This document shows, in pieces, positions 10,056 through 63,877 of a DNA stretch of 64,000 nt. Positions within the stretch are counted from its first letter, which is position 1. Each line of letters starts with the position of its first letter. The position numbers and the translations under genes are program-made. The stretch covers positions 87,854,001 to 87,918,000 of the forward strand of contig OX597822.1 of the NCBI GenBank assembly GCA_951406725.2. The letters run 5' to 3'. A model generated the notes under the pieces. That model saw only the letters and a list, made by a program, of their open reading frames with translations. It had not been told where the DNA came from and made no database searches. This DNA comes from Octopus vulgaris. Lineage: Eukaryota.

Positions 10056-10092
10056 TCTCATACACCATATATACGTATGCATATATGCGTAT

Positions 10093-10870
10093 GCGAGCTG
10101 GCAGAAACGTTAGCACGCCGGGCGAAATGCTTAGCGGTATTTCGTCTGTCGTTACGTTCTGAGTTCGAATTCCGCCGAGGTCGACTTTGCCTTTCATCCT
10201 TTCGGGGTCGATAAATTAAGTACCAGTTACGCTCTGGGATCGATGTAATCGACTTAATACTTATGTCTGCCCTTGTTTGTCCCCTCTGTGTTTAGCCCAT
10301 TGTGGGTTATAAAGAAATAGGTATTTAGTCTGTCGTTACGTTCTGATTTCAAATTCCGCCTAGGTCGACTTTGCCTTTCATCCTTTCGGGGTCGATAAAT
10401 TAAGTATCAGTTACGCACTGGGGTCGATATAATCGACTTAATCCCTTTGTCTGTCCTTTGTTGTCCTCTCTGTGTTTAGCCCCTTACGGGTAATAAAGAA
10501 ATAGGTATTTCGTCTGCCGTTACGTTCTGAGTTCGAATTCCGCCGAGGTCGACTATGCCTTTCCTCTTTTCGGGGTCGATAAATTAAGAACCAGTTACAC
10601 ACTGGGATCGATGTAATCGACTTAATCCGTTTTTCTGTTCCTGTTTGTCCCTTCTATGTTTAGCTCCTTGTGGGTTATAAAGGAATAGGTATTTCGTCTG
10701 TCGTTACGTTCTGAGTTCAAATTCCGCCGAGGTCAACTTTGCCTTTCAGCTTTTCGGGTTCGATAAATAAAGTACTAGTTTCGCACTGGGGTCGATGTAA
10801 TCGACTTAATCCCTTTGTCTGTCCTTGATTGGCCCTCTATGTTTAGCCCCTCGTGGGTAATAAAGAAATA
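10093..10870 (+). mobile_element. Nin/Deu-domain tRNA SINE (Octopus OK-like) with its body tandemly repeated four times
   Basis: One head (GCGAGCTGGCAGAAACGTTAGC) is followed by units starting at ~10138, 10322, 10506 and 10690 (period 184). Each unit contains a B-box (GTTCRAATTCC) and the Nin-like GCCTTTCATCCTTTCGGGGTCGATAAA. Confidence 0.8.
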
Positions 10871-11162
10871 TATATGTGTATGCATAAATCAGGACTTTAC
10901 CAAATGCTACAAGTGCAATGGCCGTCTTTGTTATTACATTTATATTTTTGTTCGAGTCATAAGAATTTTGAAACTTCACGTGACATGGAATAATTCTTTT
11001 TGGAACAATGAAATTCGAAGTAGATAAAACTTCGTCTAAAAAAGTCCTCAACATTTTCTATCCGAACGGTTTTTAATCCAATCTTATTATTTATAGCTTT
11101 ATCTCCTTCGAGTTTCATCGCTCCCAAAACGAATTATATATTAGTTTATTGTTTAGTATTTA

Positions 11163-16481: not shown

Positions 16482-16946
16482 GAATAAAATAACAAGGTAA
16501 AAGTTTTTATTTTTCATTCCTTTTAAAAATTGCTCTTAAATGTGGTTTTGGTCGTTTTAACTACTTTTTCTAGCTGGTAAAACTGCCTGTTGAAGGCTGT
16601 TTCTCTTGTGTTTAAATGTACACAATGAGAATATATTGTCTATTCACTTTATATACATGCTAGGCCACTGGTAGTGAAATTTCTAAAAAGAAACTCGCTA
16701 CGCTATATTTTCCGTGTGCATATATATATTCATGTATGTTATTTTGTAATAATTACTGGTATCCTTATATATTAATATATTTAATATCTTATATGTAAAG
16801 CATAATATGTTATACATGTATGTATATTATTGTAATTGTCAGTTTAGTAAATAAATAAATAAGTTAACATAATATAATGTCTAAAAGTTGATGAACCACC
16901 TATCGATCCCCTCCATTTTCTTATTGCTATATATATATATATATAT

Positions 16947-18096
16947 TGTTACGGTTGGCTAAGTGCATTTCGGGTTTAATTAGTGTAGTGTTTCTGGTGA
17001 CCCACATCGTGGATATGGTTCCAGTATGTCTGGTGAAAATGTGACAGTCTTTTGTCTAATGGAGGACTAATGGGTTTTGGAATGACCTGTGACCTCGTGC
17101 GGTTGAGAAGAGGGTCAGGAGAATGTGAAAGAAAAGGGACAGATTAAGGGCTGAGAGCAAATAGAGATAGAGTATAAGCAGTAAGGGACGGATGGAGAGG
17201 CTAAGAGTCTGGCAGGCGATAGCGATAGAGTAAGAGCAGAGGGCAAATAGAAAGGATAAGCAGTAAGGGACAGATAGAGAGGCTAAGGGATTGAGGCGAT
17301 ATAGATAGAGTAAGGAATCAGAGAGCAGTTAGAAAGGGTAGGAGCGATATAGACAGAGGGAGATGAGGGAGTGGAAGTCAGGACAAGGAAGTGAGGTTCT
17401 GGGCAGTCGTTGAGCGGTCGTCGAGGAACACGGACGGACTCTGGAGGTCAGAGCGAGTGGATGGAACCTTGGATTTAAGGAACAAGCGTTGGAATTCTTA
17501 GGAGCAAGTTGGATGCGAGAAAGCTTGGCGGCACAGAAGGGAATTAGCAGTATTCAGAGGAATTAGCAGTATTGAGAGGAATGGGACACTGGCAGATTCA
17601 ATTAGGAACTGAGGTATGTGATTTGTGTATTGAACAGTCAAGGACTCTGTCGATGTGGTCGATAAAGGACATTGTGAAGAAGAAGAGTAAAGGACTTGTT
17701 ATTTGTGATGTTTAGAAAAAGAGACTTTAGAGAACTGTGTCTTCGGACGTGTACCTTTGAAATACTGTATATGACTTGTTGCGTCTCCGGACTGATATAT
17801 TGTTACATGATGTTGTATTATGTATTGAGTAGTCACGTGCATGCTTTGATGTATCTTGATGTGTAACATTGTAATTGCCGTATAAACTGTTGTTTGAATA
17901 TAAGCCAGTGTTGCCAGTTGTTGCCTTGCCTCTTTGGGTTGTATCTCGGGTTGTGCCTCTGTATCTCTGTGCTGTTGAGGTTGTGGCAGTATCTATCTGT
18001 ATCTCCTCTCTCCGCCTCTTTGGGTTCCGTGGCGGAACTAGTGTGCGAGCCGTTCGGGACGAGCGACGACGGGCGATTCCAGTCCGTTCCGTAACA
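16947..18096 (+). repeat. 5' LTR (1150 bp)
   Basis: TG...CA ends with an 8-bp terminal inverted repeat. By eye it matches 20092-21242 apart from one T indel near 17862. Confidence 0.95.
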
Positions 18097-18098
18097 AC

Positions 18099-18116
18099 TG
18101 GTGTCAGAAGTGGGAT
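18099..18116 (+). other. Primer-binding site complementary to the tRNA-Leu(CAA) 3' end
   Basis: TGGTGTCAGAAGTGGGAT begins 2 nt after the 5' LTR. Confidence 0.9.
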
Positions 18117-18154
18117 TGTCCTGATTGCTGCGTTTCGATCGGTTCTTTTTCGCT

Positions 18155-20080
18155 ATGGATTTGTCTGGCTGTCAGACCGGAGACGAGGGGATTTCGCTTG
18201 CCCTGATTGTGGAGATGTTAGGGGGCCAGATCGCGCAGACGGACGCGTTCGTGGAAAGAATGGACAAGAGGCGACGGGGCCTGTGGGCAGATCAGCAGGA
18301 GCTTGAGGTTGCGGATGGGTCAGCTTTGGAGGATCGGTGTTGGACCGAGGATAGCGACGGTCCTGTGGGCAGAGATTGCCCGTCGAACGAAGCATCGAGG
18401 GAAACAGATAGTGAAGGAAGTGTTGCCGAAATCTGTGATGCTGGACCGGCTGTGTTTGCGGAACCTGGGCTGGTTGCCGAAATTTGTGACGCTGTACCCA
18501 AGAAATCTTGTGATTTGGAACCCGTAGAGGTTGAAGTAACCAAAAGGCCTGTGGAAGGTGTTATGGCTGATGCTGTTGTTCCGTGTCTGGAGCCCTTGGC
18601 ATCTCGACCCCTGTCTCTCGGAGCTCAGGACGAAGAGCTGGCGAGGTCTGGGGCGAATGTCGCTGAGTCCGAGGTTCCGGCTCTGTGTGTGATGGTCGCG
18701 GCAGGTGCTATGCCGTGTGCGGGTCCTTTGGTGTCTGGACCCCTGTCTCTTGGGGCCCAGAGGGACTGTATGGTTCCCACTGTGGAGAGGCCACAGGCGT
18801 GGATGGACTGGCGGCCGGGCGTGTGTGTTGTGAGGCCTGCGGTACGGAAGCTGGTGAGGAAAAGGACCAGGCCCGTTGACGAGGCGAGACGGCTGCGAAC
18901 GGTGGTGGGTCCACCGAGACCAGGAGGACTGCTTCAGCGTTGGGTGAGCTTTGTGGTTGATGGTTGCTTGGGGCCGGTGGAGCCCGACAGGCAGTGCCTA
19001 GTGAAAGCTCGATTGAGGGTCGGGTGGACCCTAGTGGAAGCAGAAGCTGGTGGAGCGCTAGCTGGGTCGGCCGATCTTTTGGAAGTGGCACAGGCGATTT
19101 GCAGAAGGCAAATCGAGGAATCGTGCCAGATGGCGAACCAGTGGTGGGGCCAGCTCTGCCGATACGGCAACGCAGTTGAAGGAGGTGGTGGCCCACGGAT
19201 GCAGTTGAGGAAGCGGTCCGCAAGGAGTCGCTGGTGCTTTGTTGGCACTTGGGGGAGCTCTGTATTTGATGGTTGCGTGGGGCCGGTGGAGCCCGACATG
19301 CAGTGCGGAATAGGAACTCAATTGAGGGTCGGCTGGACCCTGGTGGAGGCAGAGTCTGACAGAGCGCTGGTTGGGTCGGCCGAGTTATTGAAGGCTGCGC
19401 AGGCGATTTGCAGAGGGCAAATCGTGGAACTGCGCCGGACGGTAAACCAGCGGCGGGGTCAGTTCTGCCGGTGCAGAGATGAAGTTAAGGGAGTTCGTGG
19501 TCCGCTGATGCAGTTGCGGAAGAGGCAACTGTTGGTGAAGAGCGCAGGACGTTGGTCGCGAGGGTTGTTGGATGCTGGTCGCACGGACCTGGCAGAACGT
19601 TTCGTCGACCAGGGCGGTTGTCGCTTGAGGAGGCGGCGAGGCCGGAGGAAGGTCTCAGTACAGCAGCGCAAGAGGAGATATCGGCGACGGGGAACTGTGG
19701 AAAAGCGGAATGGTCCCTGGTCGTCGGCGATAATTGCGCGGAATGGAGATGGTACAGCAAGATGCTACGTGGGCTATAGAGCCCTGAGGAAGGTGGCCAC
19801 TGTGAAGGATTGGCCGGACCCTTCCTGTGTGAGGGATTTGAGGAACTTCTTCGGACGGTGCGCCTATTGTGGACGGCTAGTAGGAAGCCTGGCGGCGTTG
19901 GCGGAGGTGTTACCCAAGCCGCAGAGGGAAGGTGCCAACCTGTGGCTGGTGCTGAAGTGGTGGCCGTGGGAGGTGAGACCCCCGGAGGAGAAACCACCCA
20001 AGGGGACCCCCAGCCCCTGGAGAGTCTGCTGCTCGGAGGTGCGAGTTTTGTTATGCTTTGTCGGGTCGACAAAAGCTTAG
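18155..20080 (+). CDS. 641-aa ORF of highly diverged gag/pol remnants with no RT catalytic core, RNase H or integrase
   Basis: Open from 18125 (first ATG 18155) to TAG 20080. It contains two copies of a 103-codon gag-like unit. GRTDLAERFVDQG...GTVEKRNGPWSSAIIARNGDGTARCYVGYRAL (RT N-terminus-like) is fused to KVATVKDWPDPSCVRDLRNFFGRCAYCGRLV (RT thumb/connection-like). Confidence 0.75.
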   Translation: MDLSGCQTGDEGISLALIVEMLGGQIAQTDAFVERMDKRRRGLWADQQELEVADGSALEDRCWTEDSDGPVGRDCPSNEASRETDSEGSVAEICDAGPAVFAEPGLVAEICDAVPKKSCDLEPVEVEVTKRPVEGVMADAVVPCLEPLASRPLSLGAQDEELARSGANVAESEVPALCVMVAAGAMPCAGPLVSGPLSLGAQRDCMVPTVERPQAWMDWRPGVCVVRPAVRKLVRKRTRPVDEARRLRTVVGPPRPGGLLQRWVSFVVDGCLGPVEPDRQCLVKARLRVGWTLVEAEAGGALAGSADLLEVAQAICRRQIEESCQMANQWWGQLCRYGNAVEGGGGPRMQLRKRSARSRWCFVGTWGSSVFDGCVGPVEPDMQCGIGTQLRVGWTLVEAESDRALVGSAELLKAAQAICRGQIVELRRTVNQRRGQFCRCRDEVKGVRGPLMQLRKRQLLVKSAGRWSRGLLDAGRTDLAERFVDQGGCRLRRRRGRRKVSVQQRKRRYRRRGTVEKRNGPWSSAIIARNGDGTARCYVGYRALRKVATVKDWPDPSCVRDLRNFFGRCAYCGRLVGSLAALAEVLPKPQREGANLWLVLKWWPWEVRPPEEKPPKGTPSPWRVCCSEVRVLLCFVGSTKA

Positions 20081-20091
20081 GTAGGGGGTAG
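20079..20091 (+). other. Polypurine tract
   Basis: AGGTAGGGGGTAG directly abuts the 3' LTR. Confidence 0.85.
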
Positions 20092-21238
20092 TGTTACGGT
20101 TGGCTAAGTGCATTTCGGGTTTAATTAGTGTAGTGTTTCTGGTGACCCACATCGTGGATATGGTTCCAGTATGTCTGGTGAAAATGTGACAGTCTTTTGT
20201 CTAATGGAGGACTAATGGGTTTTGGAATGACCTGTGACCTCGTGCGGTTGAGAAGAGGGTCAGGAGAATGTGAAAGAAAAGGGACAGATTAAGGGCTGAG
20301 AGCAAATAGAGATAGAGTATAAGCAGTAAGGGACGGATGGAGAGGCTAAGAGTCTGGCAGGCGATAGCGATAGAGTAAGAGCAGAGGGCAAATAGAAAGG
20401 ATAAGCAGTAAGGGACAGATAGAGAGGCTAAGGGATTGAGGCGATATAGATAGAGTAAGGAATCAGAGAGCAGTTAGAAAGGGTAGGAGCGATATAGACA
20501 GAGGGAGATGAGGGAGTGGAAGTCAGGACAAGGAAGTGAGGTTCTGGGCAGTCGTTGAGCGGTCGTCGAGGAACACGGACGGACTCTGGAGGTCAGAGCG
20601 AGTGGATGGAACCTTGGATTTAAGGAACAAGCGTTGGAATTCTTAGGAGCAAGTTGGATGCGAGAAAGCTTGGCGGCACAGAAGGGAATTAGCAGTATTC
20701 AGAGGAATTAGCAGTATTGAGAGGAATGGGACACTGGCAGATTCAATTAGGAACTGAGGTATGTGATTTGTGTATTGAACAGTCAAGGACTCTGTCGATG
20801 TGGTCGATAAAGGACATTGTGAAGAAGAAGAGTAAAGGACTTGTTATTTGTGATGTTTAGAAAAAGAGACTTTAGAGAACTGTGTCTTCGGACGTGTACC
20901 TTTGAAATACTGTATATGACTTGTTGCGTCTCCGGACTGATATATTGTTACATGATGTTGTATTATGTATTGAGTAGTCACGTGCATGCTTTGATGTATC
21001 TTGATGTTGTAACATTGTAATTGCCGTATAAACTGTTGTTTGAATATAAGCCAGTGTTGCCAGTTGTTGCCTTGCCTCTTTGGGTTGTATCTCGGGTTGT
21101 GCCTCTGTATCTCTGTGCTGTTGAGGTTGTGGCAGTATCTATCTGTATCTCCTCTCTCCGCCTCTTTGGGTTCCGTGGCGGAACTAGTGTGCGAGCCGTT
21201 CGGGACGAGCGACGACGGGCGATTCCAGTCCGTTCCGT

Positions 21239-21242
<4 letters not shown>
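20092..21242 (+). repeat. 3' LTR (1151 bp)
   Basis: Direct repeat of 16947-18096. Confidence 0.95.
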
Positions 21243-21280
<38 letters not shown>

Positions 21281-23966: not shown

Positions 23967-24383
23967 TTATTTCTTTATTGCCCACTAGGGGCTAAACACA
24001 GAAGGGACAAACAAGGACAGACAAAAGGATTAAGTCGATTAGATGATCCCCAGTGTGTAACTGGTACTTAATTTATCAACCCTGAAAGGATGAAAGGCAA
24101 AGTCGACCTCGGCGGAATTCGAACTCAGAACGTAACGGCAGACGAAATACCTATTTCTTTATTACCCGTAAGGGGCTAAACACAGAGGGGACAAACAAGG
24201 ACAGACAAACGGATGAAGTCGATTATATCGACCCCAGTGCGTAACTGGTACTTAATTTATCGACCCCGAAAGGATGAAAGGCAAAGTGGACCTCGGCGGA
24301 ATTTGAACTCAGAACGTAACGGCAGACGAAATACGGCTACGCATTTCGCCCGGCGTGCTAACGTTTCTGCCAGCTCGCCGCCT
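23967..24383 (-). mobile_element. Nin-domain SINE with tandem second body
   Basis: Reverse complement of the 10093 family. Confidence 0.8.
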
Positions 24384-31162: not shown

Positions 31163-31459
31163 TTACTTTTCTTATTTGTACGTAAACTTAATTTGCATCT
31201 AAATACAAAACAATTATCTAAATACAATTATCTAAATACAATTATCCAAAAAACGACAAAATCTATCTCCTTTGATCAAGCAAATTCACTGAGTTAAGCA
31301 GCATCTCTAAATAATGGCTTCGAATTTTGGCACAAGGCCAGCAACTTCGGGGGAGGGGGATTTATATTGACCCCAATGCAAATATATGAAAAATTTGTTT
31401 TATTTAATTTTATTTTAAGTTAAAAAAATTTGTACTCATTTCATCATTTTGTACAAGTC

Positions 31460-31615
31460 TCTTTTATCTCTTTTACTTGTTTCAGTCATTTGACTGAGGC
31501 CATGCCGGAACACCACCTTGAAGTGTTTTAGTCGAACAAATCGACTCTGGAACGTTTTTTTAAAGCCCAGCAATATTCTATCGATCATTTTTGCTGAACC
31601 GCTGACGTAAACACA
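31460..31615 (-). mobile_element. OR2-like SINE 3' part
   Basis: TTTTACTTGTTTCAGTCATTTGACTG... is the reverse complement of the OR2-like tail. Confidence 0.65.
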
Positions 31616-52317: not shown

Positions 52318-52680
52318 ACGTGACACTCTGTCGGTTACGATAACGGGGGTTCCAGTTGATCCGATCAACGGAGCTGCCTGCTCGTGAAATTAACGTGCAA
52401 GTGGTTGAGCACTCCACTGACACGTGTACTCTTAACGTATTTCTCGGGGAGATTCACCAACATGGCTGGTCCTTTGAAATACAGGTACAACAGAAATAGG
52501 AAGAAAGAGTGAGAGAAAGTTGTGGTGAAATAATACAGCAGGGTTCGCCACCACACCCTGTGGGAGCCTCGTAGAGCTTTAGGTGGTTTCTCTCATTAAA
52601 CACTCACAACGTCCAGTCTAGGAATCGAAACCGCGATCCTACGATCGCGAGTCCGCTGCCCTAACCACTGGGCCATGGCG
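52318..52680 (-). mobile_element. OR1-like SINE, long-tail variant
   Basis: Homologous to 53510-54172. Confidence 0.75.
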
Positions 52681-53437
52681 CGACCAGACAATTTCTGCAA
52701 CCACATTACCCCTTACATTTGGCCACCTAACTCCCCAGAGAGCAACACCCTTGATAATTGTGTGGGGGTGCAATTGAACGAGAGACCATTCCTCAAGAAT
52801 TCCTTTCCTACCCATGATTTTTACAATAAAAATTTTAGAAAGTCCACTTACGACTGTAAAGATCTCTAATCTAGGAGAGGAGCTCTCTTCCTACTCACCC
52901 TCCTCTCTTTATCGTTGTCTTCTTCTCTCTCGTCCTCGTCGTTCTCATTCTTGTCCTCTTCCACGTCCCATCCTCTCTCTCCCTCCCCCTCTCTCTCATT
53001 ATTTTTGTTGAGTAAACTTCTTACAACTCTGAGTTTCACCTATGAGTGCTAAACGTTATCCAAATAAATTACGACAGTCAGCTTTCCTGAAGATCTTGTG
53101 TACCCACAGCTGAAACTCAAAGTAGCAAGAAACCGACTCGACCAAAACATCATTTATTAACCTGTACTCGTCAACACTGATTCGGGGAAGGGTACGAGCG
53201 CATGCGTGCACACACATCATTTAAAACAGTTTGATTCGGCCTCTTGCAGAAGCCCGTCTCTTTCAGGCTTTGACTTGCTGAAACCAAAGCCCGACAGGCT
53301 TCTGTTAGAGGCCCGTGGAACTTTAAATTGCGTGTAACCGAATCAAACTGTTTTAAATAATGCATGTAACTCCTGCTAAATGTGTTGAGTGCTCATTTCT
53401 TTTGTTTGTCAACTCATTCGAGTATACACACACACAC

Positions 53438-53509
<72 letters not shown>

Positions 53510-53510
<1 letters not shown>

Positions 53511-54169
53511 CGTGGCACTCCATCGGTTACGATAATGAGGGTTCCAGTTGATCCAATCAACGGAACAGCCTGCTCGTGAAATTAACGTGCAAGTGGCTGA
53601 GCACTCCACAGACACGTATATCCTTAACGTAGTTCTCGGGAGATACAGCGCGACGCTGAGTGTGACAAGGCTGGCCATTTGAAATACAGGTACAACAGAA
53701 ATAGAAAGAAAGAGTGAGAGAAAGTTGTGGTGAAATATTACAGCAGGGTTCGCCACCACACCCTGTGGGAGCCTCGTAGAGCGTTAAACGTTTTCGCTCA
53801 ATAAACACTCACAACACCCGGTCAGGGAATCGAAACCGCAATCCTACGACCGCGAGTGAGAGAAAGTTGTGGTGAAATATTACAGCAGGGTTCGCCACCA
53901 CACCCTGTGGGAGCCTCGTAGAGCTTTAAATGTTTTCGCTCAATAAACACTCACAACACCCGGTCAGGGAATCGAAACCGCGATCCTACGACCGCGAGTG
54001 AAAGAAAGTTGTGGTGAAATATTACAGCAGGGTTCGTCACCACACCCTGTGGGAGCCTCGTAGAGCTTTAAATGTTTTCGCCCTATAAACACTCACAACG
54101 CTCGGTCAGGGAATCGAAACCGCGATCCTACGACCGCGAGTCCGCTGCCCTAACCACTGGGCCATTGCG

Positions 54170-63348: not shown

Positions 63349-63505
63349 TAAAACCTTAACCCTAAAACCCTAGGGTTAGGGTTTTAGGGTTAGGTTTAGG
63401 GTTTTAGGGTTAGGGTGTTAGGGTTAGGGTTTTAGGGTTAGAGTTAGGGTTTTAGGGTTAGGGTTAGAGTTTTAGGACTTGGGTTTTAGGGTTTTAGGGT
63501 TAGGG
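63349..63505 (+). repeat. Telomere-like (TTAGGG/TTTTAGGG)n with a short inverted CCCTAA segment
   Basis: AAAACCTTAACCCTAAAACCC-TAGGGTTAGGGTTTTAGGG... Confidence 0.85.
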
Positions 63506-63877
63506 AAAGCTTGTATGTCGACGCATGAAGGCTAACACTGTTACATGCACAATTCATGAGCTATGCAGAAAGAATCGGCGGGAAGAGGTGGCGTTGTTCC
63601 CGTGGATTCACTCGGGCTATACAAGTCAATTTCTGTTTTGAGAAAAGTCATTTGACTTTACCATTTATAATCCAAATAATGTATATATGTGGATAAGACT
63701 GTCGTTATTTCCCGTTACTATCGCAGTTTACTTTCATTTTTAGGACAGTTTACTTTCACTTTATTACCACATTCTCTTCATAATTACCATCATTACTACT
63801 TCCCCAATCTACGTCAACGCCAGTAATAAGCGCACCACTCCCTTCAACACTGCCAACACTCCCAAGATAAACTTCCC

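Follow-up and report, generated by a model that had tools for sequence, protein, structure and literature searches.

A Gypsy-type LTR retrotransposon family of Octopus vulgaris, devoid of enzymes and capsid, with a gag-pol reading frame under selection

Non-autonomous long terminal repeat (LTR) elements tend to be regarded as passengers without coding capacity. In this study we describe a different case, located at positions 16947-21242 (4296 nucleotides, nt) of a 64,000-nt stretch of Octopus vulgaris DNA (assembly GCA_951406725.2, contig OX597822.1, 87,854,001 to 87,918,000 of the forward strand; hereafter the window). The idea of a coding non-autonomous element that acts in cis has a published precedent in the mouse IAP 1delta1, where an internal deletion fuses gag and pol into one open reading frame (ORF) (Saito et al., 2008, via PMC7411935 and PMC6466679). 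It is the one coding case with an assay that our literature search came upon. It needs an autonomous relative, and the fusion has been reported to promote in cis the transposition of the element itself and to be dominant among new insertions (PMC7411935, PMC6466679). In plants, TR-GAG elements are non-autonomous LTR elements with a single ORF, which encodes a Gag precursor, and show signs of activity (PMC4350172). Non-autonomous families of sugar beet carry patchy decayed remnants (PMC13570524), cattle D-type ERVK outcompete their helpers without intact ORFs (PMC10924933), and the Helenus and Ajax TRIMs are of a different kind (PMC10886601). Additionally, defective interfering RNAs of coronaviruses are mosaics of deletions that depend on a helper; an open fused frame is favored in them, and the encoded sequence is said to be irrelevant (works cited in PMC8255065). 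The octopus element bears paired LTRs, a primer binding site (PBS), a polypurine tract (PPT) and a target-site duplication (TSD), and belongs to the non-autonomous LTR retrotransposons of the Ty3/Gypsy type. Its interior (18097-20091, 1995 nt, 59% GC) harbors one ORF of 641 codons, which runs from the ATG at 18155 to a TAG ending at 20080.

Selection on the open frame and its residues

A genome search with the interior led to 116 candidates, of which 40 were scored, at 89-100% identity, and a query with the LTR ends led to 410. From the 84 loci examined, at least 61 full interiors of the family were cut. They form two groups. The young long form, to which the window copy belongs, carries an in-frame duplication of 309 nt, and the older short forms have a single copy of the duplicated spacer. 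Young copies are 93-99% alike and family interiors go down to 80% identity. For the 21 copies in which both ends were found, the LTRs diverge by a median of 0.39%, and a 4-bp TSD is present in 17 (15 ATAT, 2 GTAT). An uninterrupted frame that starts at a 5' ATG and reaches at least into the last 110 nt of the interior occurs in 26 of the 61 interiors and in 24 of the 37 belonging to the young set, a count that includes one tandem duplicate, one copy with a later ATG and one copy without its 3' end; the other 35 copies are broken.

The frame is under selection during copying, among inherited changes. After removal of three near-duplicates and of one copy of high divergence from the 61 interiors, 57 were compared, and we distinguished shared changes, found in at least two copies and mostly passed through replication, from private ones, found in one copy and mostly post-insertion. 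Shared indels keep the frame in 23 of 24 cases, against 21 of 56 for private indels (Fisher p = 5e-7). When nearby gaps were left unmerged the counts were 24/25 and 20/55, and the young set gave 8/8 and 9/23. By the same method, only 4 of the 23 shared indels of ten LTRs were multiples of three. The only frameshift that is shared lies near the free C-terminus. Concerning stop codons, three shared variants were found where 21.6 were expected, each of them in distant copies at CGA or TGG codons and probably recurrent, not inherited, while the two other frames gained 29 and 20 shared stops. Private stops (14, with 27 expected) also fall somewhat below expectation, because part of the private changes belong to lineages and because similarity guided the choice of loci. 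An original prediction, made from the letters of the window alone, had proposed to follow the ORF across copies and had named GC-rich, stop-poor composition as an explanation that would count against it. The frame proved open far beyond chance, and composition does not account for it: Markov nulls of order 1-4 derived from the interior gave at least 641 stop-free codons in 1, 0, 2 and 2 of 1000 trials, the remaining two forward frames of the interior hold 30 and 18 stops, and stops are gained freely in the other frames. Broken copies have left essentially no daughters despite the open copies in the same genome, so that the benefit would go to the RNA that bears the frame; the open frame is thus very probably needed in cis.

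At the amino acid level, a codon model fitted to 23 of the 26 ORFs that are open gave an omega of 0.76 overall (p = 5e-5), and the dN/dS ratio that had been suggested as a check is indeed below one, though only mildly so for the ORF as a whole. By segment, omega is 0.43 for residues 1-60 (Gag helix), 0.42 for residues 553-612 (thumb and linker) and 0.57 for the second spacer copy, and it is not different from 1 in the repeat region (1.26, residues 61-231). Compared with autonomous copies, the remnants of the reverse transcriptase (RT) present an omega of 0.46-0.49 at a synonymous divergence (dS) of 0.6-0.9. Among shared variants the ratio of nonsynonymous to synonymous ones (N/S) is 0.70, and among private variants it is 1.04 (p = 0.002). 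As estimated here, amino acid constraint is mild overall and clear in the Gag helix and the thumb.

Descent from an autonomous Gypsy family

Autonomous Gypsy relatives were reached by a search with the RT-like tail of the ORF. In the best preserved of them, L065, the gag frame spans 429 codons, and pol encodes protease, RT, RNase H and integrase in the order typical of Gypsy (Pfam), with a stop in the integrase region; its PBS, PPT and 3' end are the same as those of the derivative family. Its RT core has 14 matches of at least 63% at 13 places in the genome; the rest of the 150 that were scored lie at 43% or less. The family descends by stepwise deletion from an autonomous Gypsy family. An RT-core deletion (pol ~392 to 546) is common to all derivatives, RNase H or integrase sequence persists in some of L080-L085, less of it in L075-L078 and L081 and least in the short and long forms, and eight of the nine distinct large deletion junctions are in phase, the gag-to-pol one included. 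Specifically, L080, L082, L083, L084 and L085 have lost the RT core and kept RNase H or integrase sequence, the integrase core motifs of L080 standing among stops. The derivative lineage lies at dS 0.5-0.9 from the autonomous relatives, yet the median LTR divergence is as low as given above, in agreement with the predicted long replication in trans with an open frame.

The LTR ends of L040, L041, L047 and L089 are 78-88% like those of L065, and the ends of L085 and L076 resemble L066 and L067, which suggests co-packaging and template switching with the L065-type autonomous family. A candidate for the partner that the original prediction had proposed to look for is this family, with the same PBS and PPT, the same type of TSD and, in some subfamilies, exchanged LTR ends. 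Across L001-L030, LTRs are far more diverged between copies (best pieces mostly 72-95%) than interiors (93-99%), their ends are mosaic, and in some derivatives they are like those of autonomous copies. One tandem element (L015/L016, G000:C1:22476776-22485018) is made up of two open interiors and three LTRs. As helpers, nine further Gypsy loci with a long open pol were rejected: seven have a different PBS, one gave no LTR pair, and the ninth has 11 PBS bases in common and short unrelated LTRs. L095, L096, L098, L099 and L102 are unrelated Gypsy families with long open pol and LTRs 95-100% alike, apparently active, one of them with many near-identical copies.

The ORF is not a cargo of unknown kind, as nearly all of it maps onto gag and pol pieces of the autonomous relative (Table 1). 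About two thirds is pol-derived, and the order of the pieces follows L065 except for the zinc knuckle, which originally lay at the end of Gag and now stands further forward. Deletions have removed capsid, protease, RT core, RNase H and integrase; gag codons ~133-340 are missing, the position of the capsid being set by weak, sub-cut-off PNMA and SCAN matches. The absence of these enzymes and of an intact knuckle had been predicted correctly, with no Pfam family on the ORF and with the deletions visible in the mapping onto L065. The RT N-terminal remnant has a weak match to the Ty3 RT (4OL8, E-value = 0.047), and the whole ORF reaches RT-like clusters of the ESM Atlas (best 0.79), which is only a lead. 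Homologue searches returned octopus copies and one weak lobster protein and nothing else. Gene models of O. sinensis (97% identical to residues 326-631) and O. vulgaris are pieces of the element annotated as uncharacterized host proteins. The stop of the ORF overlaps the start of the purine tract in the window copy, as had been noted, but this does not extend to the family, since other copies end at the old pol stop (SEVRV-stop) or elsewhere within the last 30 codons.

The protease-to-RT spacer (~145 residues at L065:3821-4258) has no Pfam family, and in the ESM Atlas it falls with unnamed clusters of arthropods, rotifers and molluscs at 0.93-0.95. A dUTPase-derived fold of the spacer was considered and was unsupported (no Pfam or PDB match, model predicted local distance difference test, pLDDT, of 38), and the genome offered no dUTPase match for comparison with the spacer. 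An ATG-free leader of at least 200 nt (26 of the 29 copies listed) was also rejected as evidence, because CAT and TAG are about equally rare there.

Two opposite trends are seen along the series. The zinc knuckle has all four ligands in the early derivatives L075 and L076 and loses ligands stepwise in L046, L091, L038 and the window copy, which lacks two. Along the autonomous, early, short and long forms, lysine plus arginine in pol 325-362 rises from 18 to 29, 43 and 50%, and aspartate plus glutamate falls from 16 to 6, 3 and 3%. Three of four other segments are flat in charge along the series, and the net charge of +16 compares with 2.7 expected from changes elsewhere in the ORF. On this comparison, the Arg-rich motif arose from a neutral RT segment while the knuckle decayed.

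Table 1. Coordinates of the element in the window and composition of its ORF
Feature	Position	Strand	Remark
TSD, left copy ATAT	16943..16946	+	inside TA microsatellite
5' LTR, TG...CA, 1150 nt	16947..18096	+	
PBS for tRNA-Leu (CAG/CAA)	18099..18117	+	same PBS in autonomous relatives L065-L067
Single ORF, 641 residues, starts at gag ATG	18155..20080	+	in-frame patchwork of gag/pol remnants
Gag N-terminal helix, residues 1-55	18155..18319	+	41% identical to L065 gag 20-70
Eroded zinc knuckle, residues 62-75, now beside N-terminal helix	18338..18379	+	2 of 4 CCHC ligands gone
Acidic low-complexity region, partly duplicated Gag 76-132 linker	18380..18847	+	neutral evolution
Protease-to-RT spacer of pol, two copies	18848..19555	+	309-nt in-frame duplication, copies 78% alike
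RT N-terminal remnant, ending at RT-core (YxDD) deletion junction	19556..19810	+	
Arg-rich motif, residues 487-519, net +16	19613..19711	+	from neutral RT segment, net +2 over aligned residues
RT thumb remnant	19811..19912	+	56% identical to L065 pol 543-583
Short scraps: RNase H-integrase linker, integrase tail, pol C-terminus	19913..20050	+	boundaries from related copies
PPT	20079..20091	+	last 55 nt of interior 91% like L065
3' LTR, 1151 nt	20092..21242	+	
TSD, right copy ATAT	21243..21246	+	

A possible role of the encoded product

We lean, by a small degree, toward a product that is a cis-acting adaptor tying its own RNA to the particles of the autonomous relative. The RNA of the element would be translated into the gag-pol patchwork protein, the Arg-rich motif would bind the RNA that encodes it and the retained Gag helix would co-assemble with Gag of the helper, whose enzymes would reverse-transcribe from tRNA-Leu and integrate at ATAT-like sites. 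Action in cis is proposed because a trans product would let frameshifted copies ride along, and only one frameshift is shared. Concerning transcription, three putative RNA runs reach 28-29 of the element's 30 bins (contigs of up to 863 nt), whereas in a control stretch, fully covered by a DNA-like run, they reach only 9-10 of 30; this contrast hints at transcription of the element, in contigs that show neither strand nor level. A more elaborate version is offered tentatively and as one joint proposition, to which we give less than even weight: the parasite may have discarded capsid and enzymes and built a new packaging adaptor out of the scrap of its helper, with the Gag helix as docking handle and, in place of the decaying knuckle, an Arg-rich RNA-binding motif derived from a dead RT segment, all intermediates of the series surviving in one genome where the parasite outnumbers a nearly collapsed helper family.

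A number of observations weigh against the adaptor. The capsid region, which would ease co-assembly, is deleted, and AlphaFold gave no confident fold for the product (mean pLDDT 27.8), the best-predicted stretch being a helix at residues 15-54 (pLDDT 44-66). None of the 21 loci examined for it holds an intact autonomous copy, and the LTR of the window copy has only stretches of 56 and 22 nt in common with L065; the helper that was active when this copy inserted may be a segregating one, carried by other individuals. Of the junctions, the one nearest the 3' end is out of phase in three of four copies, and junction phase alone is weak evidence because the RT-core junction lies at a short imperfect repeat, which can favor in-frame deletion. 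The mildness of the amino acid constraint counts here too: omega is not significantly below 1 in the first spacer copy (0.81) or in the RT N-terminus with the Arg-rich motif (0.74), it is 0.83-0.89 for the spacer against its autonomous form, and recombination among copies may bias such tree-based estimates. The N/S contrast is not significant for transitions (p = 0.07) or transversions (p = 0.24) taken separately, or in the young set alone (p = 0.38). Finally, the basic segment was chosen after inspection, the lineages compared are related and not independent, and L038 presents an equally large charge gain elsewhere in its ORF.

The main rival is that translation alone is needed, the open frame shielding the RNA from nonsense-mediated decay or letting it ride ribosomes to assembly sites, with the protein largely irrelevant. 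Ty1 assembly sites do nucleate on translating RNA (PMC3945221), and in the octopus family the frame is selected far more strongly than the residues, the ORF takes up the interior between the gag ATG and the vicinity of the PPT and its C-terminus is free, and the repeat and spacer regions drift near-neutrally. Such an explanation predicts a selected frame with free residues; the frame is selected, and residues are free in some segments and constrained in others, namely the two separate segments with the lowest omega, the second spacer copy and, over deep divergence from autonomous copies, the RT remnants. The charge gain is also local and stepwise, and a shorter interior would be cheaper, yet the duplicated long form expanded latest. 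We regard this rival as less probable than the adaptor, while treating it as a serious competitor.

A product acting in trans, either as a decoy or inhibitor of the autonomous element, as the original prediction had also considered, or kept for host benefit, appears improbable. Fragments of dead RT and Gag could poison assembly, for which Ty1 p22 is an example (PMC4599808), and the autonomous relatives are few and broken in the assembly. However, selection acts on inherited changes of mobile copies and not on fixed loci: private variants behave neutrally (N/S 1.04) and 35 of the 61 copies are broken. Moreover, a shared product would let broken copies propagate, when inherited frameshifts are essentially absent. 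Even less room is left for no selection at all, with a few young masters in frame by chance in a GC-rich, stop-poor sequence. The base composition, the closeness of the young copies and the ability of microhomology to favor in-frame junctions would fit, but the interiors differ by up to a fifth of their positions, the dS from autonomous copies is large, the same history put 19 of the 23 shared LTR indels out of frame and 29 and 20 shared stops into the two other frames, the composition null was reached in at most 2 of 1000 trials, and merged and unmerged indel counts agree. A chance origin of the open frame is accordingly very improbable, barring a fault in the alignment.

The window copy and comparison with known systems

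The window copy is a recent insertion. Its two LTRs, anticipated to be alike except for one indel, differ by one inserted T and no substitution, and the PBS and PPT, also anticipated, were both located. TATA-like boxes are found in the 5' LTR at 17881 and 17899. The PBS pairs with the 3' end encoded by tRNA-Leu(CAG/CAA) genes of the host; ARAGORN called four of ten loci as tRNA-Leu, and the other six are intron-bearing copies labeled Met. Matches to the tRNA-Leu 3' end are clustered at G000:C29:8819758-8829120 and C4:81207464-81210198, and one member of the C4 cluster that was checked turned out to be a tRNA-Leu(CAG) gene lying within a 542-nt tandem array. Elsewhere in the window, TTAGGG-like repeats occur on both strands at 63357-63519, interstitial in a 119-Mb contig, and units like short interspersed elements are arranged head-to-tail at 10087-10871, 23968-24382 and 52460-54143, with periods of 184 and 142 nt. 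A very high-copy short repeat at 31310-31540 is abundant in the putative RNA runs too.

By population-style statistics, an element without enzymes and capsid can be obliged to keep its frame open. The family also preserves its intermediates as a graded series, and it separates the portions of Gag and Pol that it pays to retain in cis (N-terminal helix, thumb) from those that it does not. With it, the selection of RNA for packaging by LTR elements becomes a question open to tests on short natural fragments, and the origin of a new basic motif within a dead enzyme can be traced. Our literature search, which covered mostly open papers and left repeat databases outside, found no account of the octopus family or of a selected ORF without capsid.

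Like TRIM, LARD, ETn and the cattle D-type ERVK, the octopus family has kept LTRs, PBS, PPT and TSD, outnumbers its helpers and probably recombines with them (PMC13570524, PMC6466679, PMC10924933). Those elements have no full ORFs or carry patchy remnants, and the interior of TRIM and LARD is non-coding, whereas the octopus interior holds one selected frame of 641 codons. With TR-GAG it has in common the non-autonomous state, the single ORF and signs of activity, but its ORF is without capsid region or intact knuckle, and its 4296 nt fall outside the TR-GAG length of less than 4 kb. Compared with the defective interfering RNAs of coronaviruses, it has two constrained segments and one new motif, resides in the germline and has diverged far from its source. 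At most, the octopus family operates in the manner of IAP 1delta1, and it belongs to none of 1delta1, TR-GAG and TRIM/LARD. It and 1delta1 both have an in-frame gag-pol deletion fusion; 1delta1 is a class II endogenous retrovirus with one 1.9-kb deletion and a reported cis role, while the octopus family has a Gypsy-type pol, at least eight junctions and a cis role deduced from its evolution. The octopus family also presents a rearranged knuckle, a duplication and a long independent divergence, and its product is without capsid.

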